Positions 38,633-60,371 are shown, counted from the first letter of the stretch. The stretch: DNA of 64,000 nucleotides from Acidimicrobiales bacterium (GCA_035294085.1 DATGLP010000002.1:30061-94060); one strand, 5' to 3'. The notes: a model not told the origin generated them from the sequence alone. Made by a program: numbers and translations.

Positions 38633-38706
38633 AGGGCAGTAGCTCAAGTGGGTAGAGCACCGGTCTCCAAAACCGGCGGTTGGGGGTTCGAGTCCCTCCT
38701 GCCCTG
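38633..38706 (+). tRNA. tRNA-Trp: tRNA-Trp (anticodon CCA), CCA end not encoded
   Basis: AGGGCAG/CTGCCCT acceptor, CCGGT-CTCCAAA-ACCGG anticodon arm, GGGGG-TTCGAGT-CCCTC T-arm, discriminator G. Conserved position upstream of secE. Confidence 0.92.
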
Positions 38707-38730
38707 CTCGCCAGGAACCAGAGGACGACC

Positions 38731-39042
38731 GTGAACCGACAGACGAAGCGCCTGCTGCAGCGGCAGGGGCAGCTCGGCGCCGACGGCACCCCGGCGCCTC
38801 GCCGCCCGCCGGCCACCCTGGCGCGTCGCCCGCCGGAGGCGCGCCGCGCTAGCCTGGGGAAGCGTTTCGCCCAGTTCATGCGCGAGGTGCGGAGCGAGCT
38901 CGCGAAGGTCATCTGGCCTCGCCGAGCCGAGGTGGTGAACTACTCCACCGTCGTGCTCACGACGCTCGTGCTGCTTTCGCTCCTCATCTTCGGGCTGAAC
39001 TACCTGTTCGCCAAGGGGGTGCTGTTCCTCTACCGGAGGTAG
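38731..39042 (+). CDS. secE: Preprotein translocase subunit SecE
   Basis: GTG 38731: basic N-region, then ..FMREVRSELAKVIWPRRAEVVNYSTVVLTTLVLLSLLIFGLNYLF.. (the conserved SecE TM3 region). Track ORF start 38680 would overlap the tRNA. Confidence 0.88.
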   Translation: MNRQTKRLLQRQGQLGADGTPAPRRPPATLARRPPEARRASLGKRFAQFMREVRSELAKVIWPRRAEVVNYSTVVLTTLVLLSLLIFGLNYLFAKGVLFLYRR

Positions 39043-39126
39043 GACCTCGGCGGCACCGGTGCCCGGCGGGCGCCGGGCGGGCGAGGTGGTCAGGCGGCCG
39101 GGACGGGCCGGCACCGAGAGACGAGC

Positions 39127-39786
39127 ATGGTGATGACGACGTACACGAGCGACGACGGGGGCGAGGCGCCGGTCGAGGTGGACGACCTCGAGGGCGAGCC
39201 GCTCGAGGAGGACGAGGCTCCGGCGCGTCCGCCGAGCCCCTACGACCGGCCGGGCCGCTGGTACGTCGTGCACACCTACGCCGGCTACGAGAACAAGGTG
39301 AAGTCCAACCTCGAGAGCCGCATCTCCTCCATGAACATGGAGGACCGCATCTACGAGGTCGTCATCCCGATGGAGGACGCCGTCGAGTTCAAGAACGGCA
39401 AGAAGGTCACCGTCCAGCGCAAGGTGTTCCCCGGCTACCTGCTGTGCCGCTGCGAGCTCGACGACGACTCGTGGTCGGTCATCCGCCAGACGCCGGGCGT
39501 GACCGGCTTCGTCGGTCCCGGCACGAAGCCGACGCCGCTGTCGCGAGCCGAGGTGGAGAGCATCCTGCAGGTGCGCGAGGAGGGGGCCGAGGGTCCCAAG
39601 CAGCGCCGCCCGCGCCTCGAGCACGAGGTCGGCGAGACGGTGCGCGTGCGCGAGGGCCCCTTCGCCGACTTCACCGGGCAGGTAGCCGAGATCAACGAGG
39701 ACCAGCTCAAGCTGAAGGTCCTCGTCAACATCTTCGGACGAGAGACGCCGGTCGAGCTGGACTTCAGCCAGGTCGCGAAGCTCTAG
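39127..39786 (+). CDS. nusG: Transcription termination/antitermination factor NusG
   Basis: Acidic N-extension, then ..[20 protein letters not shown].. (NGN), ..[30 protein letters not shown].., KOW: ..[22 protein letters not shown].. Confidence 0.95.
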
Positions 39787-39817
39787 GCGCGTCGGCAAGG
39801 ATCAGGAGAGGGCTCGC

Positions 39818-40246
39818 ATGGCACGCAGGCGCGTCACCGCCGTCGTCAAGATCCAGCTCCCCGCCGGCCAGGCGACGCCGGCGCCGCCGGTCGGCACGGC
39901 GCTCGGCCCGCACGGCGTGCAGACGATGGAGTTCTGCAAGCAGTACAACGCCGCGACCGAGAGCCAGCGCGGGACGATCATCCCTGTCGAGATCACGATC
40001 TACGAGGACCGCTCCTTCACCTTCGTCCTGAAGACGCCCCCGACGACCGTGCTCTTGCGGGAGGCCGCCGGGCTCGACAAGGGGAGCAAGGCTCCCGGCC
40101 GGGAGCAGAGCGGGACGGTGACCGAGGAGCAGCTCGAGGCGATCGCGCGCACGAAGCAGCCCGACCTCAACGCCAACGACCTCGAGTCGGCCAAGCGCCA
40201 GGTGGAGGGGACGGCGCGCTCGATGGGCATCACCGTGGCCCGCTGA
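39818..40246 (+). CDS. rplK: 50S ribosomal protein L11
   Basis: ..[35 protein letters not shown].. Confidence 0.97.
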
Positions 40247-40273
40247 GCGGGCGGGCGAGAGCGGAGGGAGCAG

Positions 40274-40999
40274 ATGGCTCGCAACGGCAAGCGGTACCTC
40301 GACGCGCTGAAGCGGCTCGACCGCAGGCAGCTGTACTCGCCCGCGGAGGCGATCGACCTCGTGAAGAGCCTGGCGAGCGCGCGCTTCGACGAGACCGTCG
40401 AGCTCGCCGTGCGCCTCGGCGTCGACCCGCGCCGCGCCGACCAGATCGTGCGCGGCTCGCTCAGCCTTCCGGCGGGGACCGGCAAGGCCGTGCGCGTCGC
40501 CGTGTTCGCCGCCGGGGAGCAGGCGGCCGAGGCGCGCGCCGCGGGGGCCGACGTCGTCGGGGCGGACGACCTCGTGGCGCGCGTCGAGAAGGAAGGCTTC
40601 CTCGACTTCGACGTCGCGATCGCGACGCCCGACCTGATGCCCCAGGTCGGTCGGCTCGGGCGGGTGCTCGGGCCGCGCGGCCTCATGCCGAACCCGAGGA
40701 CGGGCACCGTCACGGCGGACGTCGGGCGCACCGTCGCCGAGTACCGCAGCGGCAGGATCGAGTACCGCACCGACCGCGTCGGCAACGTGCACGTGCCGAT
40801 CGGCAAGGTCTCCTTCGAGCGCTCGGCGCTGCTCGCCAACTTCCGCGCCGTGATCGACGAGCTGCAGCGCGCGAAGCCGGCGGCCGCGAAGGGGCGCTAC
40901 CTGCGAGCCATCACGGTCTGCTCGACGATGGGACCCGGCGTACGCGTCGACCCGAACCGGACGCGCCTCGCCGACGAGGACCTCGCGGCGACGGCCTAG
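40274..40999 (+). CDS. rplA: 50S ribosomal protein L1
   Basis: [55 protein letters not shown].. Confidence 0.97.
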
Positions 41000-41172
41000 C
41001 GGCGAGCGTGTAGCCTGGGCGCGCCGCGGGTGCCCGCGGCCGCCGAAGACATCTGGTGCGCCTGGCGGCGCCGAAGGGGTGGGGCGTCCCACCCGCCCGA
41101 CGAGGCGAGCACGTGCGGTCGCGCACGTCTGCCCCTCGGCTCCGCCTGGTCGTCGCCGCTGGAGGGAGCAGC
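41000..41172 (+). promoter_or_regulatory. rplJ 5' leader (candidate L10(L12)4 autoregulatory leader)
   Basis: A 173-nt untranslated gap before rplJ, unusual in this tightly packed region. Contains the hairpin GGGTGGG-GCGT-CCCACCC (41077-41094) and GGAGGGAG just before the GTG. Assignment is by position only. Confidence 0.4.
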
Positions 41173-41733
41173 GTGGCAACGAGCGTGCGGGACCCGAGGC
41201 CGTCGAAGGTCGCGGTCGTGGACGAGGTCCGCGAGCGCCTGGCGGGCTCGGGCGCGGCGATCCTCACCGAGTACCGCGGACTGCGCGTCAGCGAGCTCCA
41301 GGCGCTGCGCCGCTCGCTCGCCGCCGCGGGCGGTGAGTACAAGGTGTTCAAGAACACCTTGGTGCGGCGCGCGGCCCACGAGAGCGGGCTCGGGGCCCTC
41401 GAGGAGCTCCTCGTCGGGCCGACCGCGATCGCCTTCGTGCACGGCGACGTCGCCGCGGTGGCGAGGGTGCTGCGGGACTTCGCCCGCACGCACCCGAGCC
41501 TCGTCGTGAAGGGCGGCCTCGTCGGTACGAGCGTCATCGACGAGCGGGCGGCCGCCGCGCTCGCCGACCTCCCGACGCGCGAGCAGCTGCTCGCCCTCGT
41601 GGCCGGCGCGCTCGCCGCCCCGCTCCAGCGGTTCGCGGCGCTGCTCAAGGCGCTGCCGCAGAACTTCGCGTACGGGCTCGCGGCGCTCGTCGAAGCCCGC
41701 GGCGCGCCGGCCGAGCGCGCCGAGGGCGCCTGA
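41173..41733 (+). CDS. rplJ: 50S ribosomal protein L10
   Basis: GTG 41173 after GGAGGGAG: VATSVRDPRPSKVAVVDEVRERLAGSGAAILTEYRGLRVSELQALRRSL..YKVFKNTL.. Confidence 0.93.
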   Translation: MATSVRDPRPSKVAVVDEVRERLAGSGAAILTEYRGLRVSELQALRRSLAAAGGEYKVFKNTLVRRAAHESGLGALEELLVGPTAIAFVHGDVAAVARVLRDFARTHPSLVVKGGLVGTSVIDERAAAALADLPTREQLLALVAGALAAPLQRFAALLKALPQNFAYGLAALVEARGAPAERAEGA

Positions 41734-41781
41734 GCGCGCGGGCCTCGACAGGCCGGACCGAGAAGGAGGAGGGAGACCCAC

Positions 41782-42165
41782 ATGGTGACCAAGCAGGAGA
41801 TCCTCGACGGGATCGCGAGCATGACCGTGCTCGAGCTCTCCGAGCTGCTCAAGGAGTTCGAGGAGCGCTTCGGCGTGACGGCCGCCGCCCCGGTCGCCGT
41901 CGCTGCGCCGGCCCCGGCCGGCGCGAGCGCGCCCGAGCCGGTCGTCGAGGAGCAGGAGGAGTTCGACGTCGTCCTCGCCTCGGCGGGCGACAAGAAGATC
42001 CAGGTGATCAAGGAGGTCCGGGCGCTCACGAGCCTCGGGCTCAAGGAGGCGAAGGACCTCGTCGACTCGGCACCCAAGCCGGTGCTCGAGAAGGTGTCGA
42101 AGGAGGACGCGGAGAAGGCGAAGGCCCAGCTCGAGGCCGCGGGCGCGACCGTCGAGCTGCGCTAG
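41782..42165 (+). CDS. rplL: 50S ribosomal protein L7/L12
   Basis: ..[26 protein letters not shown].., ..[24 protein letters not shown].. Confidence 0.97.
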
Positions 42166-42232: not shown

Positions 42233-42397
42233 GCGCATGGCGCGCGCGCAGCGTGCGTTGCGCCCTTCGGCGCGCGCCGGTAAGCTCTGCTCACCGTGCC
42301 CGCTCGCCACGCGACGTCTCTCTCGCCAGCGTGCTGACGCGCGCCCGGACTGCCGCAGCCCCTGCCGTCTCGACCTGTGTCTGCGAGGAGTAGGCCC

Positions 42398-49946
<7,549 letters not shown>

Positions 49947-49950
<4 letters not shown>

Positions 49951-51446
49951 AGCTCGAGCGCAGCGGGCGCGCCGGCAGGCCGGCGCGCCCCGCGCTCGAG
50001 CGCGGTGAGCACCGCCGCCGCGGCGGCGACGGCGGCGAGGAAGAAGGCGGCGGCGCTGAAGCCGCTCGGGACGTGCGCCGTCCCCGTCGCACCCGCCAGC
50101 GTGTACACGAGGCCCGTGAGGGCGAGGCCGAGCGCGGTGCCGGTCCCGCGCGACATGTTGAGGACCCCGCTCGCCACGCCTGCCTGCACCTTGGGCGCCG
50201 AGGCCATGACGGAGGCCGAGTTCGGCGCGATGAACAGGCCAGCGCCCACCCCGAGGAGGGCGAGGGCGGCGACGAGGGGCCCGGTGGCCGGGCGCGTGAG
50301 GCCGACGACGGCGAGCACGGCGGCTGAGATCGCCATGCCGCTCACGGTGAGCGGTCGAGGTCCGACGCGGTCCGCGAGACGGCCGGCGAACGGCGCCGTC
50401 AGCCCGAGCGCGAGGGGCAGCGCGGCGAGCTCGAGGCCGGTACCGGCAGGGGACAGGTGCCGGCCGTGCTCGAGGAAGAAGGGGATGACGAAGAGCACGC
50501 CGAAGAGGACGACGAAGGCGAGCACGCCGCCGGCGATGCCGATGCTGAATGCAGGCCGCTCGAAGAGCGTGAGGTCGAGGAGCGGGTCGCGCGCGCTCCG
50601 CTCCCGGCGGACGAAGGCGATCGCGGCCGCCACCGCCGTGACGAGGAGCACGAGGATTGCCGGCGAGGCCCAGCCCCACTCGTCGCCGTAGGAGACGGCG
50701 AGGAGCAGCGCGGCGGTCGCCGGCACGAAGAGCACGAGGCCGAGCCAGTCGAACCGGGCGCTGGCCTGGAGGTGGCGGCTGCGCGGCAGGAGGAAGCGGG
50801 AGGCGACGATCGCCACGATGCCGACCGGCACGTTGACGGAGAAGATGAGCCGCCACCCCCCGGCGGCGAGGAGCGCGCCCCCGACCGCCGGACCGAGAGC
50901 AAGGCCGAGCGCCTGCGCGGCGCCCTGCACGCCGATGCCTCGGCCGAGCGACTCCTTGGGGAGCGCGAGGTAGATGATGGCGACGCTGTTCGCCTGCAGC
51001 ATCGCGGCGCCGAGCGCCTGGAGGACGCGGAAGAGGTCGAGGCTGAGCAGGCTCGGCGCGAGGGCGCACAGCCCCGAGCCGAGCGTGAAGACGACGAAGC
51101 CGTAGCTGTAGAGGAGCTTGCGTCCGACCGTGTCGGCGACGCGCCCGACGGCCGTGACCATCGTCACGAGCACGAGGAGGTAGCTGAGGCCGACCCAGGT
51201 GACGGCGCCGACGCTCGCGTCGAAGGCGCGCTGGAGGCTCGGTAGGGCGACGGTCACGATGCTCGCGTCGAGCTGGCCCATGAAGGCGCCGATGCAGACC
51301 GTCCCGAGGGCGAACAGGTGGGCCTTGGGGTGCCGCCGGAGCCACTCGGGGCGTCCGGGTTCGCGCAGCAGGGCCGACAGCCCGCGCGCGCGACGCGCCG
51401 ACACCTCGCCTGGCGGTTCGTCCTCCACCTCGAGGTGCTCCAGCAC
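49947..51446 (-). CDS. MFS transporter, DHA2 (EmrB/QacA, 14-TM) family
   Basis: ..[23 protein letters not shown].., ..[12 protein letters not shown] (motif A), 14 hydrophobic segments. GGGAGGA SD upstream of GTG 51446. Its stop shares the CTAG tetranucleotide with the rpoC stop. Confidence 0.85.
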
Positions 51447-51502: not shown

Positions 51503-51518
51503 ATAAGCGATCACTTAT
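51503..51518. promoter_or_regulatory. LysR-box-like dyad ATAAG-N6-CTTAT in the MFS/LysR divergent region
   Basis: ATAAGCGATCACTTAT. The right arm overlaps the LysR ATG (51517). It lies in the only clearly AT-enriched stretch of the 70-nt intergenic region. The geometry is T-N12-A rather than the canonical T-N11-A. Confidence 0.35.
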
Positions 51519-52437
51519 GGACATCCGGCGACTCACCATCTTCCTCGCCGTGGTCGACGAGGGTGGCTTCACCGCGGCCGCCGCGGCGCTCGGGATGTCG
51601 CAGCCCGCCGTGTCCCAGGCGGTGCGCGAGCTCGAGCGCGAGCTGTCGACCGAGCTCTTCCACCGCCTCGGGCGCGGCGTCCGACTCACGCCCGCCGGGG
51701 AGGCGCTCGTCGCGCCGGCGCGGCGCGCGCTGCGCGACCTGGCGGCCGGGCGGGCAGCCGTCGACGAGGTCGTCGGCGGGCGCGCCGGCCGCCTCGACCT
51801 CGCCTGCCTGCCCACGCTCGCCGTCGACCCCGTCGCACCGCTCGTCGGTGCCTTCCGCCGGTCGTTCCCGGAGGTCACCGTCGTGCTCGCCGCGCCGGAG
51901 GACGCCGCGGAGCTCGCCGAGCTCGTCCGCTCGGGGCGTTGCGAGGTGGGGATCACCGAGGCCGAGGCGGCCGCCGGCCTCGTCGCCCACGGGCTCGCGG
52001 CCCAGGACTTCCTCGTGGCCGCGCCGCCCGGCGCGCCGCTCGCCTCCCCGGTCGCGCTGGCCGGGCTCGCCGGGCGCCCCCTCGTGGCCGCGCCGCCCGG
52101 CTCCTCGACGCGCCGCCTCGTCGACGAGGCCTTCGCTCGCGCGGGCGTCCGACCGTCCATCGCCGTCGAGGCGGCCCAGCGCGAGGCGCTGCTGCCGCTC
52201 ATCGCCGCGGGCGCCGGCACGGGGGTGCTGCCGCGGCCGCTCGCCGAGGTCGCCGCGCGTCTCGGCTGCGTCGTGGCGACGCCGGACCCCCCGATCGTGC
52301 GGCGCGTCGCCCTCGTGCAGCGAGACGCCCCGCTCACCCCCGCGGCCCGCCGGTTCCTGGAGCTCGCCCTCGGGCGCCTGCCCGCCTCGGCGACCGCTCG
52401 CCGGCGAGCGCAGCGGTTCGGGGAGCCGGGTCCCTAA
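51517..52437 (+). CDS. LysR-family transcriptional regulator
   Basis: MDIRRLTIFLAVVDEGGFTAAAAALGMSQPAVSQAVRELERELSTELFHRLGRGVRLTPAG.. (canonical LysR wHTH) plus a substrate-binding domain. Confidence 0.92.
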   Translation: MDIRRLTIFLAVVDEGGFTAAAAALGMSQPAVSQAVRELERELSTELFHRLGRGVRLTPAGEALVAPARRALRDLAAGRAAVDEVVGGRAGRLDLACLPTLAVDPVAPLVGAFRRSFPEVTVVLAAPEDAAELAELVRSGRCEVGITEAEAAAGLVAHGLAAQDFLVAAPPGAPLASPVALAGLAGRPLVAAPPGSSTRRLVDEAFARAGVRPSIAVEAAQREALLPLIAAGAGTGVLPRPLAEVAARLGCVVATPDPPIVRRVALVQRDAPLTPAARRFLELALGRLPASATARRRAQRFGEPGP

Positions 52438-52700
52438 CCGAGCCATAACCCTTCGCACATCGAAGGCACGTGGACTCCTCATGGCCCTCACACGCTCGCG
52501 TCCTACGGTCGCTCCTGCGAGCGCGGCCGGACGGAGGGGGTGGTGGCGAGCGGAGACGATGCCGGGACCGGCGACGCAGGCTCTGCCGGTGCGCCGGGCA
52601 CGAGACGCCACGCCGCTCGGCGTGGCCGAGGTGGCCGGGGGCGCGCGTGCGCGGCTCGGCCTGCCCCGGCACCGGCCGGGGCCAGAGGTGAACGGAGCGT

Positions 52701-53411
52701 GTGATGCAGCTGATCGGTGCGGGACTGCCGAGGACGGCGACGCTGTCGCAGAAGATCGCCCTCGAGATGCTCGGGCTCAGGCCCTGCTACCACATGGTCG
52801 ACGTGCTCGCTGACCTCGGCAGGGCGCGGCGGTGGACCGAGCTGCTCGAGGGCGGCGGAGGCTGGGACGAGGTCTTCGCCGGCTACGAGGCGACGGTCGA
52901 CTGGCCGGGCGCCTTCTTCTACCGAGAGCTCATCGAGGTCTACCCGGACGCGAAGGTGCTCCTCAGCGTGCGCGACGGCGCCGCGTGGGAGCGCAGCATG
53001 CTCGACACCATCTGGGGCGTCCTCTACGGCGACAGCCTCATGCGCGACCTCTCGTCGGCGCGCGCCCGGGTGGACGCGGCCTGGCGCGACTACCTCGAGC
53101 TCATGGAGCGGATGTGGCAGAAGAGCGGGCTGCTCGGCTGCGAGGACGGTAGCGGCACCGGCTCGATGGCACGCGCCATGGAGCGCTACAACGCCGAGGT
53201 GCGCGCGAGCGTCCCGGCGGACCGGCTCCTCGTGTGGTCGGTGGCCGACGGCTGGGCCCCGCTTTGCGAGTTCCTCGAGGTCCCCGTGCCCGACTCCCCC
53301 TTCCCCCGGGTGAACGACAGCGCGGCCTTCGCCGACCGGATCATCGACTCGTCCCTCGCGCTCCTCTGCGACTGGCGACTCCCCGACGGGCGGGCCGCCG
53401 CTACGGCGTGA
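52701..53411 (+). CDS. Cytoplasmic sulfotransferase-family protein (Sulfotransfer_4-like)
   Basis: N-terminal ..IGAGLPRTATLS.. (5'-PSB P-loop-like motif G-x-P-R-T-G/A-T), ..VLLSVRD.., ..ERYNAEVRASVPADRLLVW.., ..PFPRVND... No signal peptide or TM. GGAG lies 6 nt before ATG 52704 (GTG 52701 is the alternative). Confidence 0.7.
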   Translation: MMQLIGAGLPRTATLSQKIALEMLGLRPCYHMVDVLADLGRARRWTELLEGGGGWDEVFAGYEATVDWPGAFFYRELIEVYPDAKVLLSVRDGAAWERSMLDTIWGVLYGDSLMRDLSSARARVDAAWRDYLELMERMWQKSGLLGCEDGSGTGSMARAMERYNAEVRASVPADRLLVWSVADGWAPLCEFLEVPVPDSPFPRVNDSAAFADRIIDSSLALLCDWRLPDGRAAATA

Positions 53412-56401
53412 GCGCGGGCGCCGCCGCGCTCGCGCCCGCCGTCCCGGAGGAGGTGCCGCCGTCCGCCCGCCACCTCGGCGGGCGGACGGCGTGGCTCCTC
53501 GCCCTGTGCTGCGTCGCGCAGTTCATGGTCATCTTGGACCTGAGCATCGTGAACGTGGCGCTCCCCTCGATCCAGGCGGGGCTCGCCTTCTCCTCGGCGG
53601 ACCTGCAGTGGGTCGTGGACGCGTACGCGATCGTGTTCGCGGGGTTCCTCATGGTGGGCGGCCGAGCCGCCGACCACTTCGGGCAGCGCAGAACGCTCGT
53701 CGCCGCGCTCGGGCTCTTCGCGTTCACCTCGCTCGCCGGGGGGCTGGCTCCCGACGGGGACGTCCTCATCGTCGCCCGCGGCGCGCAGGGCCTCGCCGGC
53801 GCGCTCATGGCCGCGGCCTCCCTCGCCGTCATCACGTCGTCGTTCGCGGCTGGACCGGCGCGCAACCGGGCCATCGCCCTGTGGGGGGCGATGAACGGCG
53901 CCGGCGGGGCGGCCGGGACGCTCCTCGGCGGGCTGCTCACCGAGGGCCTCGGCTGGCGCTGGGTGCTCCTCATCAACCCGCCGATCGGCGTGGCCGCCGC
54001 CGTCCTCGCCGTGCGCCTCGTCGTCGACCGCCGCGGCGAGAGCCGGCGGGGCTTCGACCTCGCCGGCGCGCTCAGCCTCACCGGTGGCCTCTGCCTGCTC
54101 GTGCTCGGGATCGTGAACGCGACGAGCGAGCACCTGACCGCCCCGAGCGCCCTCGCGCCGATCCTCGCCGGCGCCGCCCTCCTCGTCGCCTTCGTGCTCG
54201 TGGAGCTGCACGTCGCGACCGCGCCGATCGTCCCGCTGCGGCGCATCGGCGGGCCGCTCGCCGGCGCGAACGCGGTCGTGGCGCTGTTCAGCGCGGCGCT
54301 CTTCCCGATGTGGTACGTGAGCTCGCTCTACCTCCAGCAGGTCCTCGGCCTCTCGCCGCTCGCCGCGGGCCTCGCCTTCCTGCCGATGGCGCTCGTCATC
54401 ATGCTCGCCGCCCGGGGGGCCGGCTCGCTCGTCGGCCGCTTCGGGGTCCGGGCGGTCCTCTCGGGCGGGCTGGCGATGATGTGCGGCGGCATGCTGCTGC
54501 TCGCCCGCATCGAGCCGAGCGGGAGCGCCCTCGGCTACGTCGTGCTGCCCGGCGTGCTCACGGCCGCCGGGATCGGCCTCGCGGTCGTCCCCTCGACGAT
54601 CGCTGCCACCCAGAGCGCCGGCCGCGAGCTCGCCGGGCTCGCGAGCGGTCTCGTCAACACGGCGCGCCAGGCGGGTGGCGGCCTCGGCCTCGCGCTCCTC
54701 GCCTCGCTCGCGACCGTCGTCACCACCTCGGAGATCGGCCGCAACCGCCCCGTCGACGTGGCGCTGACCGACGGCTTCCGGCTCGCCTTCCTCGTCGGCG
54801 CCGCCCTGGTCGCCCTCGCCCTCGTGGCGACCCTCGCGCTCGTGGCGCGCCCGACGGCGGCCGACCCGGGCGCGGGCGGGACCAGGTCCCGGTCGGGAAG
54901 GGCGCGCCTTGGCCTGCCCGGCGCCGTGGCGGTGCTGCTCGCCGGCTTCGCTGGCCTCGACTTCGGCGTCGCCGGCGGGAGCGGGGCGCCGATCGGCGCC
55001 TACTCGCTCGCCGGTTCCCGCAGCTTCGTGTCGGCCCCGAGCCTGCACCCGCCGCGCCTCACGGTGGTGCGCAGCTCGCTGCCGCCCGCCCCCGCCGACA
55101 TCATGCTCGCCAGCTTCTACGACCTCACGAGCCCGCCGATGGATGGCCAGAGCGGCCCGCTCATCGTGAACAGCCGGCTCCAGCTCGTCTGGTTCAAGCA
55201 GGTCCCTCGCGACGTCGTGGCGTCGAACCTGAGCGAGCAGACCTACGACGGCGAGCCCGTCCTCGCCTGGTGGCAGGGGCGCGTCACCGACACGGGCGCG
55301 ACCGAGAGCGGCGAGGACGTCGTCGTCGACCGCCACTACCGGGTCGTCGCGACCCTGCGCGGGGCAGACGGCTGGATCATCTCCATGCACTCGCTCGTGA
55401 TCGTCGGGCACGACGCCTGGGTGACGGCGAACCGGGACGTCCCCTACGACCTCTACCGCTACGGCGGCACCGAGCGCGGGGCGCTCACCGACTCGGCCGT
55501 GCAGGAGTACGACCTGCGCACGGGCCGGCTGCTGTACACCTGGGACGCGCTCGACCACGTCCCGCTCTCCGACTCCTACGCCAACCCGCCGCGCAACGGC
55601 TTCCCGTGGGACGCCTACCACGTGAACTCGGCGGAGGTCCTGCCGGGGAACCGGCTCCTCGTCTCGATGCGCAACACCTGGGCCGCGTACCTCGTCGACG
55701 CGTCGACGGGCCGGGTGCTGTGGACGCTCGGCGGCAAGCACTCGACGTTCCGGTTCGGTCCCGGCGCCTCCTTCGCCTGGCAGCACGACGTCATGCTGCG
55801 GCGGGGGTCGCTCGTGACCATGTTCGACGACGAGTGCTGCCAGATCAGCGGCGCCGGCACCTACCTCGCGCCCCGCGCCCCGTCACGGGGGCTCGAGCTC
55901 CGGCTGGACCTGGCGACGAGGCGCGCGACCCTCGTGCGCCAGTACGGCCCCGGCACCTACTCGGCCGCCTACATGGGCAGCCTCGACCCCCTGCCCGGCG
56001 GCGACGTCCTCGTGGGGTGGGGCGCGGTCCCGCACATCGCCGAGTACACGGCGCAGGGCCGGCTCGTCTTCGACGCGACGCTGCCCGGCCCCGACCTCAG
56101 CTACCGCGCCACGCCGCTCGAGCACTGGCGCGGCGAGCCGCTCTCGCCGCCCGCCGGCGCGGCGCGCCGGCGCGGGCGCGGCTCGGTCGTCTACGCGAGC
56201 TGGAACGGCGCCACCGAGGTTGCCGCGTGGCGGGTGCTCGCCGGCCGCAGCGCCGCGTCGCTCGTCGCGGTGGCGAGGCGGGCCCGCTCGGGCTTCGAGA
56301 CGGCGGTGCCGCTGCGGCGCTCGTACCCCGTCTACGAGGTCGAGGCCCTCGACGCGCACGGCCGGGTCCTCGGGACCTCGGCGCCGTTCGGGGCGCGCTG
56401 A
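53408..56401 (+). CDS. Fusion protein: DHA2-type MFS transporter (14 TM) + extra TM helix + arylsulfotransferase (ASST)-like domain
   Basis: GTG 53408 overlaps the sulfotransferase TGA (GTGA). The MFS part has ..QFMVILDLSIVNVALPSIQ.., ..GGRAADHFGQRR.. and 14 helices up to ~54850. The linker RSRSGRARLGLPGAVAVLLAGFAGLDFGVAG is a 15th helix. The C-terminal ~450 aa are colinear with the next ASST gene (..WWQGRV.., ..FPWDAYHVNS.., ..FAWQHD.., ..VYASWNGATEVAAW..). One uninterrupted frame. Confidence 0.8.
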   Translation: MSAGAAALAPAVPEEVPPSARHLGGRTAWLLALCCVAQFMVILDLSIVNVALPSIQAGLAFSSADLQWVVDAYAIVFAGFLMVGGRAADHFGQRRTLVAALGLFAFTSLAGGLAPDGDVLIVARGAQGLAGALMAAASLAVITSSFAAGPARNRAIALWGAMNGAGGAAGTLLGGLLTEGLGWRWVLLINPPIGVAAAVLAVRLVVDRRGESRRGFDLAGALSLTGGLCLLVLGIVNATSEHLTAPSALAPILAGAALLVAFVLVELHVATAPIVPLRRIGGPLAGANAVVALFSAALFPMWYVSSLYLQQVLGLSPLAAGLAFLPMALVIMLAARGAGSLVGRFGVRAVLSGGLAMMCGGMLLLARIEPSGSALGYVVLPGVLTAAGIGLAVVPSTIAATQSAGRELAGLASGLVNTARQAGGGLGLALLASLATVVTTSEIGRNRPVDVALTDGFRLAFLVGAALVALALVATLALVARPTAADPGAGGTRSRSGRARLGLPGAVAVLLAGFAGLDFGVAGGSGAPIGAYSLAGSRSFVSAPSLHPPRLTVVRSSLPPAPADIMLASFYDLTSPPMDGQSGPLIVNSRLQLVWFKQVPRDVVASNLSEQTYDGEPVLAWWQGRVTDTGATESGEDVVVDRHYRVVATLRGADGWIISMHSLVIVGHDAWVTANRDVPYDLYRYGGTERGALTDSAVQEYDLRTGRLLYTWDALDHVPLSDSYANPPRNGFPWDAYHVNSAEVLPGNRLLVSMRNTWAAYLVDASTGRVLWTLGGKHSTFRFGPGASFAWQHDVMLRRGSLVTMFDDECCQISGAGTYLAPRAPSRGLELRLDLATRRATLVRQYGPGTYSAAYMGSLDPLPGGDVLVGWGAVPHIAEYTAQGRLVFDATLPGPDLSYRATPLEHWRGEPLSPPAGAARRRGRGSVVYASWNGATEVAAWRVLAGRSAASLVAVARRARSGFETAVPLRRSYPVYEVEALDAHGRVLGTSAPFGAR

Positions 56402-56670
56402 TGGCACCGGCCGGGCGCGCCTCGAGCGTCGCCGACCGTCGCGCGCGCCGGCGTCCGTCGCCACCCGTGGCCGGACCGGCCGGCCGGAGCGTGGGGGGCG
56501 CCAGGGCGGCGCGGGTCGGCACCGGGCGCCCGCGCGCTCGCGCGCTGCGACGCGCCGCGGTCGCGCTGGCGCTCGCCGCCACGGCGTTCGCCGCCGCAGC
56601 CTGCGGCTCGGGCGGCCATCCGACGGGCACGACGACGACCACGGCGAGCACGCGTGGCTACGGCTACTAG
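56401..56670 (+). CDS. Small putative lipoprotein
   Basis: ATG 56401 in a TGATG junction with the fusion gene. Arg-rich n-region, h-region AVALALAATAFAAAAC with lipobox-like A-A-A-C, then a short Gly/Thr-rich mature part. High GC3. Confidence 0.35.
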   Translation: MAPAGRASSVADRRARRRPSPPVAGPAGRSVGGARAARVGTGRPRARALRRAAVALALAATAFAAAACGSGGHPTGTTTTTASTRGYGY

Positions 56671-56745
56671 CACCGTCGTGGTCGCGACCCCGCCGGCCGG
56701 GCGCGCGCTCGCGGCCGACTCGGCGCTGCCCGGGGCGGTGCGGCG

Positions 56746-58290
56746 GTGATCCCCTCCGAGGGATCGGCCTCGGCGAGGGGCTCGGGCGGCGGGCGCGTCC
56801 TGAGCCGCCGGCAGCTCCTCGCCTCGGCCGCGGGGGGCCTCGTCGGGCTCGTCGCGGCCGGCGTCGTCGGCTACGAGTGGCCGCACGCCGCCGGCCCGGG
56901 CGCGTCGCAGTCGGGCGCCGAGGAGGCGTCCGGCGCCGTCGACTCCTTCGTCAGCCGGCCGGACCTGCGCCCGCCGCGGGTGCGCGTCCAGCGCCTCGGC
57001 CCGGTCGCCGACCCGGGGCGCCGCATCTTCCTCGCGCTGCGCTACGCGCCGGGGATGTCGGGCCAGCAGGGGCTCGCCATCGTGGACTACGCCGGGCGCC
57101 TCGTGTGGTTCCGCCCTGTCGCGGGCGCCGACCCCTTCGACTGCGACGCCCAGCGCTACCGCGGCCAGCCGGTGCTCACGTGGTGGCAGGGCACGGTCGT
57201 CGCCGGGCACGGCGCGGGCGTCGGCGAGATGGCCGACGCCTCCTACCGCCGCCTCGCCACGATCCGCGCCGGCGACGGCCTCGCGGCGGACCTGCACGAG
57301 CTCAACCTCACCGCGCGCGGCACCGCCCTCGTGACCGCCTACGAGACGGTGACGGCGGACCTCTCGCGCCTGGGTGGATCCCGGCGCGCGGCCGTCCTCG
57401 CCGGCCACGCCCAGGAGATCGACCTCGCCACGGGCGCCGTGCTCTTCGACTGGGACAGCCTGCGCCACGTCGGCGTCGAGGAGAGCTACCTGCCGCTGCC
57501 GAGTGGCGCGAGCGTGCCCTACGACTACTTCCACATCAACTCGGTCGCCGAGACCCCCGACGGCAACCTCCTCGTCTCGGCGCGCAACACCTGGGCGCTG
57601 TACAAGGTCGACCGGTCGAGCGGCGAGGTGCTCTGGCGGCTGAACGGGAAGCGGTCCGACTTCAGCGTCGCGAAGCAGGCTCGCTTCTACTGGCAGCACG
57701 ACGCCCGCATGCCCGATCCGGCGACGCTCACCGTCTTCGACGACGGGGCGTCCCCGCCGGAGGAGCGGCAGTCGAGGGCCCTCCTGCTCGACGTGGACGC
57801 GCGGGCGATGCACGTTCGCCTGCGACGCGCCTACCTCCACCCGGCTCGGTTCCTCGCGGCGAACCAGGGGAGCATGCAGCTGCTGCCGGGCGGGCACGTC
57901 TTCGTCGGCTGGGGCAACCAGCCCTACTTCTCCGAGTTCGCACCCGACGGCGCGCTCGTCCTCGACGGCGAGCTGCCGCTCGGCGTGCGCTCGTACCGCG
58001 CGTTCAGCCACCCGTGGGTCGGCCGTCCTCTCGAGCCCCCCGCCGTCGCGCTGCGGGCGAACCCCGCGGGCGGCACGACCGTCTACGCCAGCTGGAACGG
58101 CGCGACGCAGGTCGCCACGTGGCTCGTCCTCGCTGGACCCAGCGCGTCCTCGCTCGCCCCGGTCGGCTCCCAGCCCTGGTCGGGGTTCGAGACTGCGATC
58201 GCCGTCGCGTCGAGCGGTCCGTACTTCGCGGTCGTGGCGCTCGACGCCTCGGGACGCGAGCTGCGCCGCTCCGGGATCGTGCGCCTCTGA
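56746..58290 (+). CDS. Secreted arylsulfotransferase (ASST)-family protein with twin-arginine signal
   Basis: ..GRVLSRRQLLASAAGGLVGLVAAGVVG.. (Tat-type S-R-R-x-L-L), ..TWWQGTV.., ..PYDYFHINSVAETPDGNLLVSARN.., ..FYWQHDARM.., ..VYASWNGATQVATW... Confidence 0.75.
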   Translation: MIPSEGSASARGSGGGRVLSRRQLLASAAGGLVGLVAAGVVGYEWPHAAGPGASQSGAEEASGAVDSFVSRPDLRPPRVRVQRLGPVADPGRRIFLALRYAPGMSGQQGLAIVDYAGRLVWFRPVAGADPFDCDAQRYRGQPVLTWWQGTVVAGHGAGVGEMADASYRRLATIRAGDGLAADLHELNLTARGTALVTAYETVTADLSRLGGSRRAAVLAGHAQEIDLATGAVLFDWDSLRHVGVEESYLPLPSGASVPYDYFHINSVAETPDGNLLVSARNTWALYKVDRSSGEVLWRLNGKRSDFSVAKQARFYWQHDARMPDPATLTVFDDGASPPEERQSRALLLDVDARAMHVRLRRAYLHPARFLAANQGSMQLLPGGHVFVGWGNQPYFSEFAPDGALVLDGELPLGVRSYRAFSHPWVGRPLEPPAVALRANPAGGTTVYASWNGATQVATWLVLAGPSASSLAPVGSQPWSGFETAIAVASSGPYFAVVALDASGRELRRSGIVRL

Positions 58291-58330
58291 GGGCGCGCCG
58301 TGACGGCGGGCGAGCCAGTATGGAGCGGCG

Positions 58331-59146
58331 ATGGCACCGCGGGGCTGCATCACGTTGCTCACCGACTACGGCCTCACCGGTGGCTTCGTCGGGGCGCTGC
58401 ACGCCGTCGCCCAGAAGCTGGCGCCCGGGGTGACGGTCGTCGACCTCGACCACGCGATCCCGGCAGGCGACGTCCGCCTCGGTGCGCTCCGCCTCGAGCG
58501 GCTGGTCCCCCTCCTGCCCCCCGGGGTCCACGTCGGCGTCGTCGACCCGGGCGTCGGGGGCGGTCGGCGCGCCGTCGCGCTGCAGGCCGGCGAGGACCAC
58601 GTCTTCGTCGGGCCCGACAACGGGCTGCTCGTGTGGGCGGCCGAGGCGCTGTCTCCGGCACCGAGCCTCGTCGTCCTCGACCGGGAGGAGTACTTCCTCG
58701 AGCGGCGGTCGAGGACGTTCGACGGCCGGGACGTCTTCGTCCCCGTCGCCGCCCACCTCGCGAGGGGCTGCTCGCTCGCCGACGTCGGCTCGCCCGCCGA
58801 CCCCGGGACGCTCGAGCGCTGCCGACGCCCGGCGCCTCGGCGCCTCGGCGAGGCCGCGTGGGAGCTCGAGGTCCTCCAGGTGGACGGCTTCGGCAACGTC
58901 CAGTTCAGCGGCGACGCGGCGCACGTCCGACTCCTCGGGCTCGAGCCGGGCGATCCCGTCGTCGTCGAGGGGGGCGGCGTGCAGCTCGTCGCCACCTTCG
59001 CCGAGACCTTCAGCGACGTCGGGCGCGGCGCGCCGGTCGTCCTCGTCGACAGCGACGGGCAGCTCTCGCTCGCGCTGAACGCGGGCCGGGCCGACGAGGT
59101 GCTCCGGGCACCTCTCGGCGCGACCGTCGTGCTCCGGCGACCCTGA
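58331..59146 (+). CDS. SAM hydroxide adenosyltransferase / SAM-dependent halogenase family protein (DUF62)
   Basis: ..ITLLTDYGLTGGFVGAL.., ..HVGVVDPGVGGGRRAV.., ..VGPDNGLL.., ..TFDGRDVFVPVAAHLA.., ..VDGFGNV... Colinear with archaeal/bacterial DUF62 proteins as I recall them. Confidence 0.8.
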   Translation: MAPRGCITLLTDYGLTGGFVGALHAVAQKLAPGVTVVDLDHAIPAGDVRLGALRLERLVPLLPPGVHVGVVDPGVGGGRRAVALQAGEDHVFVGPDNGLLVWAAEALSPAPSLVVLDREEYFLERRSRTFDGRDVFVPVAAHLARGCSLADVGSPADPGTLERCRRPAPRRLGEAAWELEVLQVDGFGNVQFSGDAAHVRLLGLEPGDPVVVEGGGVQLVATFAETFSDVGRGAPVVLVDSDGQLSLALNAGRADEVLRAPLGATVVLRRP

Positions 59147-59381
59147 CGCCGGACGGCGCCGAGGCCGCCGCCTGCCGGGTCGCGCCGGGCGCGGGCTCCT
59201 CGAGGGCGCACCAGGCTCGCTGACCTGCGCCGCGCCGGCCGAACGTGGTGGCCCTGCGGCTGCCGGTCGGAACCCGGCGTCCCGGCGGCGCGAGCCTCGG
59301 CGGTTAGCATGGCCCGCGCCGTGCGGGGCAGGCCTGAGGGCACCGGTCCCGTCGTCCGGACGGGCAGGAACGGGAGCAGCG

Positions 59382-60371
59382 GTGGGCGTCGTGGAGGTCT
59401 CGGTCGCGATCGACGACTACGAGCACGTGCGCGCCCTCGCCGACGGGGACGTCCGCGTCCCCGGCGCCACCTTCACCTTCCACCGCCTGCCGACCCCCTC
59501 GGAGATCTTCCACCGGCAGTTCCGCTTCGGCGAGTGGGACGTCTCGGAGATGTCCCTCGCCCTCTACTGCGGCATGCGCTCGGCGGGCGACGAGCGTTTC
59601 GTCGCCATCCCGGTCTTTCCGCTGCGCAGGTTCCGCCACTCCTGCGTCTTCGTCGCCGCCAGCTCGCCGCTCCGGCGCCTCGAGGACCTCGCCGGCAGGC
59701 GCGTCGGGGTGCCCGAGTGGGGCCAGACCGCGGGTGTCTGGGTGCGGGGGATCCTCGAGGACGACCACGGCGTCGGCCTCGGCGACGTCGAGTGGGTCCA
59801 GGGCGGCGTCGCCGAGGTGGGGCGTCCCGAGCACCTCCACCTCGCGCTGCCGCCCGGCGTGCGCCTCGGGCGCGTGGCCGACGCGCCGCTTATCGACAAG
59901 CTCCTCGCCGGCGAGCTCGACGCCATCGTCTCGGCGCTGTTCCCCCAGGAGCTCCTCGCGTCCGGTCGCTGCCGGCCGCTCCTCGCCGACTGGCGCGCCG
60001 CCGAGCTCGACTACTACGACCGGACGGGGATCGTCCCGATCATGCACCTCGTCGTCGTGCGCCGCGAGGTCCACGAGGCGCACCGCTGGCTCGCGAAGGA
60101 GCTCGTCAAGGCCTTCGACGCAGCGAAGGCGCGCGCCCTCGAGCGCCTCTGCTCGGCGCAGGCCTCGCTCTATCCCGTCCCGCACCTCGCCGAGGTCGCG
60201 AGCGAGCTCGTCGGGCGCTTCGGGGGCGACCCGTGGCCCTACGGGCTCGAGGCGAACCGGCACGCGCTCGCCACCTTCCTCCGCTACGCGGCCGCGCAGG
60301 GCCTGCTCGAGCGGGAGCTCGGACCCGAGGAGCTCTTCGCTCCCTCCTCGATCGACGTCTTCCACGCCTGA
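59382..60371 (+). CDS. 4,5-dihydroxyphthalate-decarboxylase-like (PhtD family, periplasmic-binding-protein fold) protein
   Basis: ..DYEHVRALADGDVRV.., ..EIFHRQFRFGEWDVSEMSLALY.., ..FVAIPVFPLRRFRHSCVFV.., ..TGIVPIMHLVVVRREV.., ..WPYGLEANRHALATFLRYAAAQGL..PEELFAP... Family call from remembered motifs only. Confidence 0.55.
   Translation: MGVVEVSVAIDDYEHVRALADGDVRVPGATFTFHRLPTPSEIFHRQFRFGEWDVSEMSLALYCGMRSAGDERFVAIPVFPLRRFRHSCVFVAASSPLRRLEDLAGRRVGVPEWGQTAGVWVRGILEDDHGVGLGDVEWVQGGVAEVGRPEHLHLALPPGVRLGRVADAPLIDKLLAGELDAIVSALFPQELLASGRCRPLLADWRAAELDYYDRTGIVPIMHLVVVRREVHEAHRWLAKELVKAFDAAKARALERLCSAQASLYPVPHLAEVASELVGRFGGDPWPYGLEANRHALATFLRYAAAQGLLERELGPEELFAPSSIDVFHA

Follow-up and report, generated by a model that had tools for sequence, protein, structure and literature searches.

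The window analysed here is a 64-kb stretch (64,000 nucleotides; GCA_035294085.1, DATGLP010000002.1:30061-94060) of the genome of an Acidimicrobiales bacterium, and at positions 53408-56401 it encodes a single protein in which a 14-helix transporter of the major facilitator superfamily (MFS) is joined by a fifteenth transmembrane helix (TM15) to an arylsulfate sulfotransferase (ASST) domain. We hold with high confidence that the fusion is real and that its enzyme domain lies outside the cytoplasm, as predicted. The gene immediately upstream encodes a homologue of the sulfotransferase Cpz8, which uses 3′-phosphoadenosine 5′-phosphosulfate (PAPS); the fused domain is of the Cpz4 type, and this pairing is the most informative context of the fusion, and was overlooked in an earlier reading of the window from its sequence alone (the original prediction). 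We propose, with a probability of roughly 0.6, that the locus encodes a two-step sulfation relay of the Cpz8/Cpz4 type that is split across the membrane, with the sulfuryl donor exported by the MFS module. The fusion gene has the following parts (all coordinates are window positions):

53408-56401, + strand: fusion gene encoding MFS module, TM15 and ASST domain, 997 codons plus stop.
53408-54847, + strand: MFS module of the drug:H+ antiporter family 2 (DHA2) type, residues 1-480, with 14 transmembrane helices and both ends predicted to be cytoplasmic (Pfam, NCBIfam, AlphaFold2, Foldseek).
54848-54913, + strand: basic loop on the cytoplasmic side that links TM14 to TM15, residues 481-502, ARPTAADPGAGGTRSRSGRARLG (from lysine and arginine counts).
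54914-54970, + strand: TM15, residues 503-521, predicted to invert the topology, N-in/C-out (hydropathy, AlphaFold2, homologue alignment).
54971-55057, + strand: predicted extracytoplasmic tether, residues 522-550 (predicted local distance difference test [pLDDT] values and conserved columns).
55058-56398, + strand: Cpz4-type PAPS-independent ASST domain, residues 551-997, all-beta and predicted to be extracytoplasmic (PF14269, PDB 9KF4, Foldseek).
55784-55786, + strand: codon of His793 (WQHD), which aligns with His436 of E. coli AssT and is predicted to be the catalytic residue that accepts the sulfuryl group.
55835-55840, + strand: vicinal Cys810-Cys811, invariant in 39/39 fused proteins.

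The stop-free frame spans 53234-56401, and translation from the GTG at 53408 reproduces the uninterrupted 997-codon frame described in the original prediction, giving 997 amino acids (aa) followed by a stop. The database copy of the protein (P0001) has the same length, and homologues are ~990-1000 aa long. The start codon shares bases with the TGA of the upstream gene in a GTGA overlap. GC content at third codon positions (GC3) is 0.90-1.00 in the fusion frame throughout 54500-55400, and this continuity gives no hint that the reading frame shifts where the two parts meet.

The same architecture recurs in many genomes. PF07690 and PF14269 are both present in all 120 of the best protein clusters examined, which come from NCBI, ENA, JGI and Logan assemblies, are 948-1105 aa long and have 59-65% identity. 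In a scan with one genome per species at least 600 stretches matched the pattern, of which 592 encode a relative; 80 loci were kept for study, and in every one of these the MFS and ASST parts lie in one frame that is stop-free between them. The genomes with a one-frame fusion include closed chromosomes of metagenome-assembled genomes (MAGs). Among the matches listed the hosts are mainly Solirubrobacterales, together with Acidimicrobiales, Gaiellales, Thermoleophilia and unclassified Actinomycetota, and one Nocardiopsaceae MAG is among the 120 best clusters. This recurrence (120 clusters, 80/80 loci) far exceeds chance; it agrees with the unbroken GC3 and with the claim in the original prediction that the fusion is genuine and not an artefact, and it answers the database search for further MFS-ASST fusions that had been suggested there.

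The original prediction also considered that orthologues might always be encoded by two genes, and no split orthologue was found in the database clusters, in the 80 loci or at the two nearest unfused MFS genes (P0247 and P0248). The neighbours of the latter are a DUF899 protein and a dehydrogenase, or a lipase-like and a thioesterase-like protein, with no adjoining ASST. When the library is clustered at 50% identity, a few representatives (774-1021 aa) stand for the whole fused family, and the next matches are ordinary MFS proteins of ~495 aa with 45-51% identity; these align only to approximately residue 480-497, and therefore end after TM14. The C-terminal domains of the fused proteins are 55-64% identical among themselves and 37-44% identical to stand-alone paralogues. 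Taken together, the conservation in all assemblies, the end point of the unfused relatives and the C-domain identities point to a single ancient fusion event behind the family. Databases already list the domain combination, with automatic names such as 'MFS transporter' or 'EmrB/QacA subfamily', and a literature search for MFS, fusion and arylsulfotransferase found no paper on the architecture.

The N-terminal part of the protein matches Pfam MFS_1 at aa 35-427 (4e-44; 151.4 bits against a gathering cut-off of 33.4), and among the NCBIfam models the DHA2 efflux pumps score best, each of them below its curated cut-off. MFS proteins of the DHA2 type have 14 helices and those of the DHA1 type have 12, and in 14-helix members the N- and C-termini are both cytoplasmic. 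The AlphaFold2 model contains 14 helices between residues 24 and 478, and these matches together bear out the 14-helix DHA2 module of the original prediction; a 19-residue hydropathy scan recovers 13 of the 14, with the glycine-rich TM5 under the threshold and visible only as AlphaFold2 helix 150-180. In Foldseek searches the nearest structures are EfpA (8UFD, template modelling [TM] score 0.83), QacA and EmrB (TM scores 0.77-0.83), which have the same fold and helix count. However, these pumps stop in the cytoplasm after TM14, whereas members of the window family add TM15 and a 450-aa enzyme that is predicted to be outside. By sequence the window module is a DHA2-like relative in a distinct clade; it falls short of the curated TIGR00711 threshold, and its nearest unfused relatives have only the 45-51% identity given above.

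The C-terminal domain is, by sequence, a PAPS-independent arylsulfate sulfotransferase of the Cpz4 type, with its activity predicted. It matches Pfam Arylsulfotran_2 (PF14269) at aa 611-890 (6.6e-38; 131.2 bits against a gathering cut-off of 27), and a 519-aa query (54842-56398) matches the Cpz4 structures 9KF4/9KF6 with an E-value of 8.2e-80 over query residues 61-514, corresponding to protein residues 539-992. In the Foldseek comparison the domain has 36% identity to Streptomyces Cpz4 with a TM score of 0.89. A profile alignment with E. coli AssT places His793 (WQHD) at His436, His738 (YHVNS) at His356 and Arg755 at Arg374, and none of the three varies among 39 fused proteins or among 26 mixed fused and stand-alone domains; in PDB 4P04 the residue that corresponds to His436 is N. 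In the E. coli aryl sulfotransferase (AST) class, His436 serves as the catalytic histidine (PMC13426309). The pair Cys810-Cys811 (DDECCQISGAG) is conserved throughout the 39 aligned fused proteins, but Cpz4 and the window paralogue described below lack Cys-Cys at the aligned position; it may form a vicinal disulfide specific to the fused clade.

E. coli AssT (EcAST; 3ELQ, PF05935) thus shares with the fused domain a beta-rich fold and the equivalents of His436, His356 and Arg374, and it acts outside the cytoplasm, as the fused domain would by prediction. The profile match between the two is weak (E-value of 4e-5 over ~80 residues), and the E. coli enzyme, which is periplasmic (PMC13426309), is soluble, depends on DsbL/DsbI and is neither tethered to the membrane nor fused to a transporter. 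A vicinal Cys-Cys pair of its own further sets the fused clade apart.

Between the two modules, the basic stretch and hydrophobic helix, with the sequence TRSRSGRARLGLPGAVAVLLAGFAGLDFGV, are found at the position given in the original prediction. Residues 503-521 (nt 54914-54970) form a hydropathy peak, and AlphaFold2 predicts a helix at 497-521. All 39 aligned members have a TM15 of 18-19 hydrophobic residues with a mean Kyte-Doolittle value of 1.8-2.95; the window helix (1.8-2.0) is the family minimum and the remaining members have values of 2.0-2.95. The loop preceding the helix contains 5 lysine or arginine (K/R) and 1 aspartate or glutamate (D/E) residues in the window protein, and 2-9 K/R and 0-2 D/E in homologues (n=39). 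Summed over 117 members, a 16-residue segment that ends in the first part of TM15 contains 310 K/R and 35 D/E, and about one K/R per protein follows the helix. The predicted inside loops contain on average 16.1 K/R per protein and the outside segments 7.0, of which 2.9 are within the 39 residues past TM15.

The K/R excess in the inside loops and the odd number of helices together place the N-terminus and the TM14-TM15 loop in the cytoplasm and therefore the enzyme outside, so that the ASST domain is predicted to be extracytoplasmic. This location also fits because stand-alone members carry signal peptides and the fused clade has Cys810-Cys811; ASST enzymes work outside the cytoplasm. The proposal that a fifteenth helix sets the enzyme outside is thus upheld as a prediction, the helix and its K/R flank being conserved in 39/39 members.

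The full-length AlphaFold2 model has a mean pLDDT of 77.8 and a predicted TM score (pTM) of 0.56, and it continues after the 14 helices with helix 497-521, then residues 523-550 in low confidence, and an all-beta domain as the remainder. Since the tether is of low confidence and the pTM is 0.56, no fixed docking of the enzyme on the pore can be claimed. The passage of substrate from the pore into the active site that the original prediction put forward would go beyond the supported coupling, in which the two modules are tethered, co-localised and expressed at a fixed 1:1 ratio. The tether is conserved in sequence (GAPIGAY...SFVSAP.LHPP, with conserved columns G530, F540, V541, P544, L546, H547, P548 and P549), and because it is conserved despite its low pLDDT it may be a defined contact or lid instead of a loose linker.

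The gene downstream of the fusion, which bears on the origin of TM15, encodes a stand-alone relative of the fused domain:

56746-58290, + strand: stand-alone Cpz4-type ASST paralogue with an N-terminal signal/anchor of the twin-arginine translocation (Tat) type, VLSRRQLLASAAGG (PF14269, 6e-55).

From residue 479 onwards the fusion is 43% identical to this paralogue over 520 columns (E-value of 1e-99), such that the C-terminal domain is colinear with a downstream Tat-secreted ASST as originally described. The alignment opens in the basic and hydrophobic N-terminal segment of the paralogue, which aligns with the TM15 region of the fusion, TM15 itself lying opposite the h-region of the Tat-type signal. 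TM15 thus resembles a retained signal or anchor, also a point of the original prediction, and probably descends from that of a secreted enzyme.

The paralogue has the motif SRRQLL and its closest relatives in other loci have SRRKVLL or SRREFL. In a motif scan of stand-alone paralogue N-termini 88 of 113 are without a motif, as many carry additional domains at this end, and the scan is informative for the window paralogue's close relatives alone. Full-length Cpz4 (P0391, 491 aa) opens with the signal peptide MALLVTAVLTLALGSAPGLAAQ, its SANK 60405 orthologue (P0393) has the Tat-like STRRALTLLVG...ASA, and a Tat-like motif is within the first 70 residues of 68 of 120 Cpz4 homologues. Because of the Cpz4 signal peptide, these 68 homologues and the SRRQLL of the window paralogue, the Cpz4 family appears by sequence to be extracytoplasmic, which suggests that the second step of two-step sulfation generally occurs outside the cytoplasm. 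In one Acidimicrobiales MAG (locus L004, 23-1525, - strand) the ASST paralogue beside the fusion operon has an in-frame stop and is either a pseudogene or affected by a sequencing error.

The gene that overlaps the start of the fusion encodes the putative first enzyme of the relay:

52701-53411, + strand: predicted cytoplasmic PAPS-dependent sulfotransferase, Cpz8 homologue, Sulfotransfer_4 (PF17784, 9KF1/9KF2).

It matches PF17784 at 8.9e-63 and, by sequence, PDB 9KF1/9KF2 with an E-value of 6.9e-43; these entries are titled sulfotransferase Cpz8, with and without 3′-phosphoadenosine 5′-phosphate (PAP). They are also the top structural matches of its AlphaFold2 model (pLDDT 87.6), with 39-40% identity and TM scores of 0.81-0.87. 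The database copy (P0121) is 235 aa long, one residue shorter than the reading from GTG-52701, and translation probably begins at the ATG at 52704 instead.

To our knowledge Cpz6/Cpz8/Cpz4 is the only system with genuine donors. In caprazamycin biosynthesis, as the work of Tang et al. 2013 is presented in PMC4257720, Cpz8 sulfates triketide pyrones, the products of a type III polyketide synthase (PKS), with PAPS, and Cpz4 draws on the aryl sulfates made by Cpz8 as donors. Homologues of both Cpz4 and Cpz8 of Streptomyces sp. MK730-62F2 are encoded at the window locus, and a type III PKS, a Cpz6-like feature, lies beside the Cpz8-like gene in some related loci. In contrast to the caprazamycin system, the Cpz4-type enzyme is here covalently joined to a 14-helix MFS by the extra helix, a liponucleoside cluster is lacking, the locus adjoins rpoB/rpoC-like frames, and the hosts are Solirubrobacterales, Acidimicrobiales and Gaiellales, with the genes not in a Streptomyces antibiotic cluster. 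Because the PKS and product cluster are absent from the window locus it is not a full member of the caprazamycin type; it is best seen as a two-step module of the Cpz8/Cpz4 type in which the second enzyme is joined to an exporter, located outside antibiotic clusters and widespread in soil Actinomycetota.

Genes within 10 kb of the fusion gene were counted in the 80 genomes, and 66 have at least one further ASST, Cpz8-like, sulfatase or PKS gene in this interval. Additional ASST paralogues, between one and five of them, are present in 58 genomes, a Cpz8-like gene in 27 (in 12 of these immediately upstream), a sulfatase in 22 and a type III PKS in 10. The PKS, whose closest matches are the alpha-pyrone synthases Pks11 and Pks18, is located upstream of the fusion (e.g. 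L003 4225-5274, - strand; also L014, L019, L035, L036, L044, L049, L062, L075 and L077), and the usual order is PKS, Cpz8-like, ASST, fusion, ASST; in 7 of the 10 loci it is directly beside the Cpz8-like gene, which recalls Cpz6. The linked sulfatase has a Tat motif (DRRNFLAKG) and the formylglycine site CGPSR (CxPxR); such Cys-type sulfatases (e.g. L003 556-2358; also L012 and ~20 other loci) are typically 2-6 kb from the fusion and are often flanked by additional ASST paralogues. Two loci (L001 7703-7861, - strand; L003 7757-7915, - strand) have a 52-aa gene with no Pfam match between the ASST paralogue and the fusion.

In the proposed relay the Cpz8-like enzyme would act in the cytoplasm, where it would transfer PAPS-derived sulfate to a small carrier, either phenolic or a pyrone, and the MFS module would export the resulting aryl sulfate. 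His793 of the tethered domain would then accept the sulfuryl group, which would be handed on to an acceptor outside the cytoplasm, in a compartment that lacks PAPS, and the Tat-exported paralogue would likewise pass sulfuryl groups to outside acceptors. The molecule carried, the direction of flow, and the identities of carrier and acceptor are inferred.

Several observations weigh against this relay. A Cpz8-like gene is within 10 kb in only the 27 of 80 related loci, 14 of the 80 have no sulfur partner in that interval, and neither a type III PKS nor a sulfatase is present in the 64-kb window. The MFS module scores 192.6 bits with TIGR00711 (EmrB/DHA2) where 230.2 are required, such that the subfamily threshold is not reached. 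The extracytoplasmic position of the ASST domain is itself a prediction, and the inter-domain geometry is without confidence in the AlphaFold2 model (pTM 0.56, tether residues 523-550, 28 in all, with pLDDT <50).

The nearest structures of the MFS module include EfpA and QacA, which are exporters of drugs and lipids, and this similarity would fit an arrangement in which the MFS exports the acceptor, such as a toxic phenolic, an antibiotic or another natural product, and the tethered ASST sulfates it on exit for detoxification, maturation or self-resistance, with the donor getting outside by some other route. Cpz4 itself acts on a finished antibiotic and not on a simple phenol (PMC13426309), and the lack of a Cpz8-like gene within 10 kb in many loci is compatible with this arrangement. 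However, an external donor would still be required and no other gene of the operon would export it, the overlap of the fusion start with the Cpz8-like stop ties donor synthesis to the transporter, and no natural-product cluster that could supply an acceptor, nor a biosynthetic cluster for an end product, was seen in the window. Export of the acceptor is judged unlikely.

Flow in the opposite direction, with the outside ASST moving sulfate from environmental aryl sulfates to a carrier phenol, the MFS importing the carrier, and the Cpz8-like enzyme or a sulfatase freeing the sulfate inside the cell, is improbable. ASSTs are reversible between phenols (PMC13426309), and the several ASST paralogues and the sulfatase in many related loci would fit turnover of external sulfate esters, but the MFS is of the drug:H+ antiporter (efflux) type, the linked sulfatase is Tat-signalled and hence acts outside, and a PKS beside the Cpz8-like gene suits the making of a donor and not salvage.

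Two further variants were considered. In the first, TM15 is an internal Tat signal and the folded C-terminal domain is exported by Tat after Sec has inserted helices 1-14. Dual Sec-Tat families exist, with the twin-arginine motif as their defining requirement (PMC5449189), and in the actinobacterial Rieske proteins Sco2149 and Sco3746 the last helix is similar to a tethered signal before a large globular domain on the outside (Tooke et al. 2017), as is predicted here; the stand-alone relatives of the window family are moreover Tat substrates by motif, TM15 aligns with the Tat-type signal of the window paralogue and is the least hydrophobic of the family in the window protein, and twin arginines directly precede TM15 in 46 of 117 members, in some cases as RRxFxV or RRLAV. 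The corresponding segment of the window protein reads RSRSGRARL, without a twin arginine, and the motif is missing in 61% of members although it is required of such proteins (PMC5449189). Unlike the dual Sec-Tat Rieske proteins, the family usually has a strongly hydrophobic last helix (Kyte-Doolittle 2.0-2.95 in the majority) and a cofactor-free domain, ASSTs have no cofactor that would require folded export, and only the single K/R per protein noted above follows TM15. With its twin arginine unconserved and absent from the window protein, a Tat-dependent TM15 was rejected and has little likelihood.

In the second, raised in the original prediction as an additional possibility, initiation at the in-frame GTG at 54842 would yield a separately secreted ASST, and the peptide would indeed open with a signal-like basic and hydrophobic segment. 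However, this GTG is one of 57 in-frame ATG, GTG or TTG codons, the 20 nt upstream of it contain nothing that resembles a Shine-Dalgarno sequence, homologues differ at residue 479 (V 13, L 12, A 6, I 4, others), and the downstream gene already encodes a separate secreted paralogue. The absence of a Shine-Dalgarno-like sequence and the variable residue leave this part of the original prediction unsupported, and a second product is very unlikely. A frameshift or assembly artefact joining two adjacent genes can in practice be dismissed, given that GC3 is unbroken at the junction and that the identical fusion occurs in independent NCBI, ENA, JGI and Logan assemblies and in one frame in 80/80 genomes.

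The remaining features near the operon in the window are as follows:

42338-49950, + strand: rpoB/rpoC-like, two very long high-GC3 frames, assigned by size and position.
49947-51446, - strand: second DHA2-type MFS, ~30% identical to the fused one, divergent from LysR.
51511-52437, + strand: LysR regulator just upstream of the sulfotransferase operon, divergent from the second MFS.
58331-59146, + strand: S-adenosylmethionine (SAM) hydroxide adenosyltransferase, PF01887/PF20257, after a 40-nt gap following the ASST paralogue.
59382-60371, + strand: weak matches to periplasmic binding-protein folds (Phosphonate-bd 7.8e-4, NMT1 8.4e-3, below cut-off), with no obvious signal peptide.

Neither the rpoB/rpoC-like frames nor the MFS/LysR pairing is conserved near the fusion, and a LysR gene is present in 1 of the 80 related loci. 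None of the 80 contains the SAM hydroxide adenosyltransferase, which is therefore probably unrelated to the fusion. Several short high-GC3 genes at 38656-42165 precede the rpoB/rpoC-like frames, and the many long antisense open reading frames are a by-product of the ~75% GC content. A scan of 52300-59300 for promoters and terminators gave nothing usable.

For most PAPS-independent aryl sulfotransferases it is not known which donors and acceptors they use in nature or what physiological role they have (PMC13426309). A Cpz4-type enzyme tied to an exporter, with an overlapping Cpz8-type gene, offers a concrete and testable account of how activated sulfate could get out of the cell. A wider and more tentative version of the relay, to which we give somewhat less than even odds, is a 'sulfate shuttle' of soil actinobacteria in which carrier-borne sulfate would pass through the dedicated MFS and be discharged by the tethered ASST and secreted paralogues onto acceptors in the envelope or environment. 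If true, it would explain why two-step sulfation exists, as PAPS cannot leave the cell, and it would be the first dedicated donor-export route for PAPS-independent sulfotransferases. The fusion is also a natural test case for the coupling of transporters and enzymes and is possibly a self-contained whole-cell sulfation catalyst, and it suggests that the abundant and little-studied soil Solirubrobacterales, Acidimicrobiales and Gaiellales have an extracellular sulfation chemistry yet to be explored.

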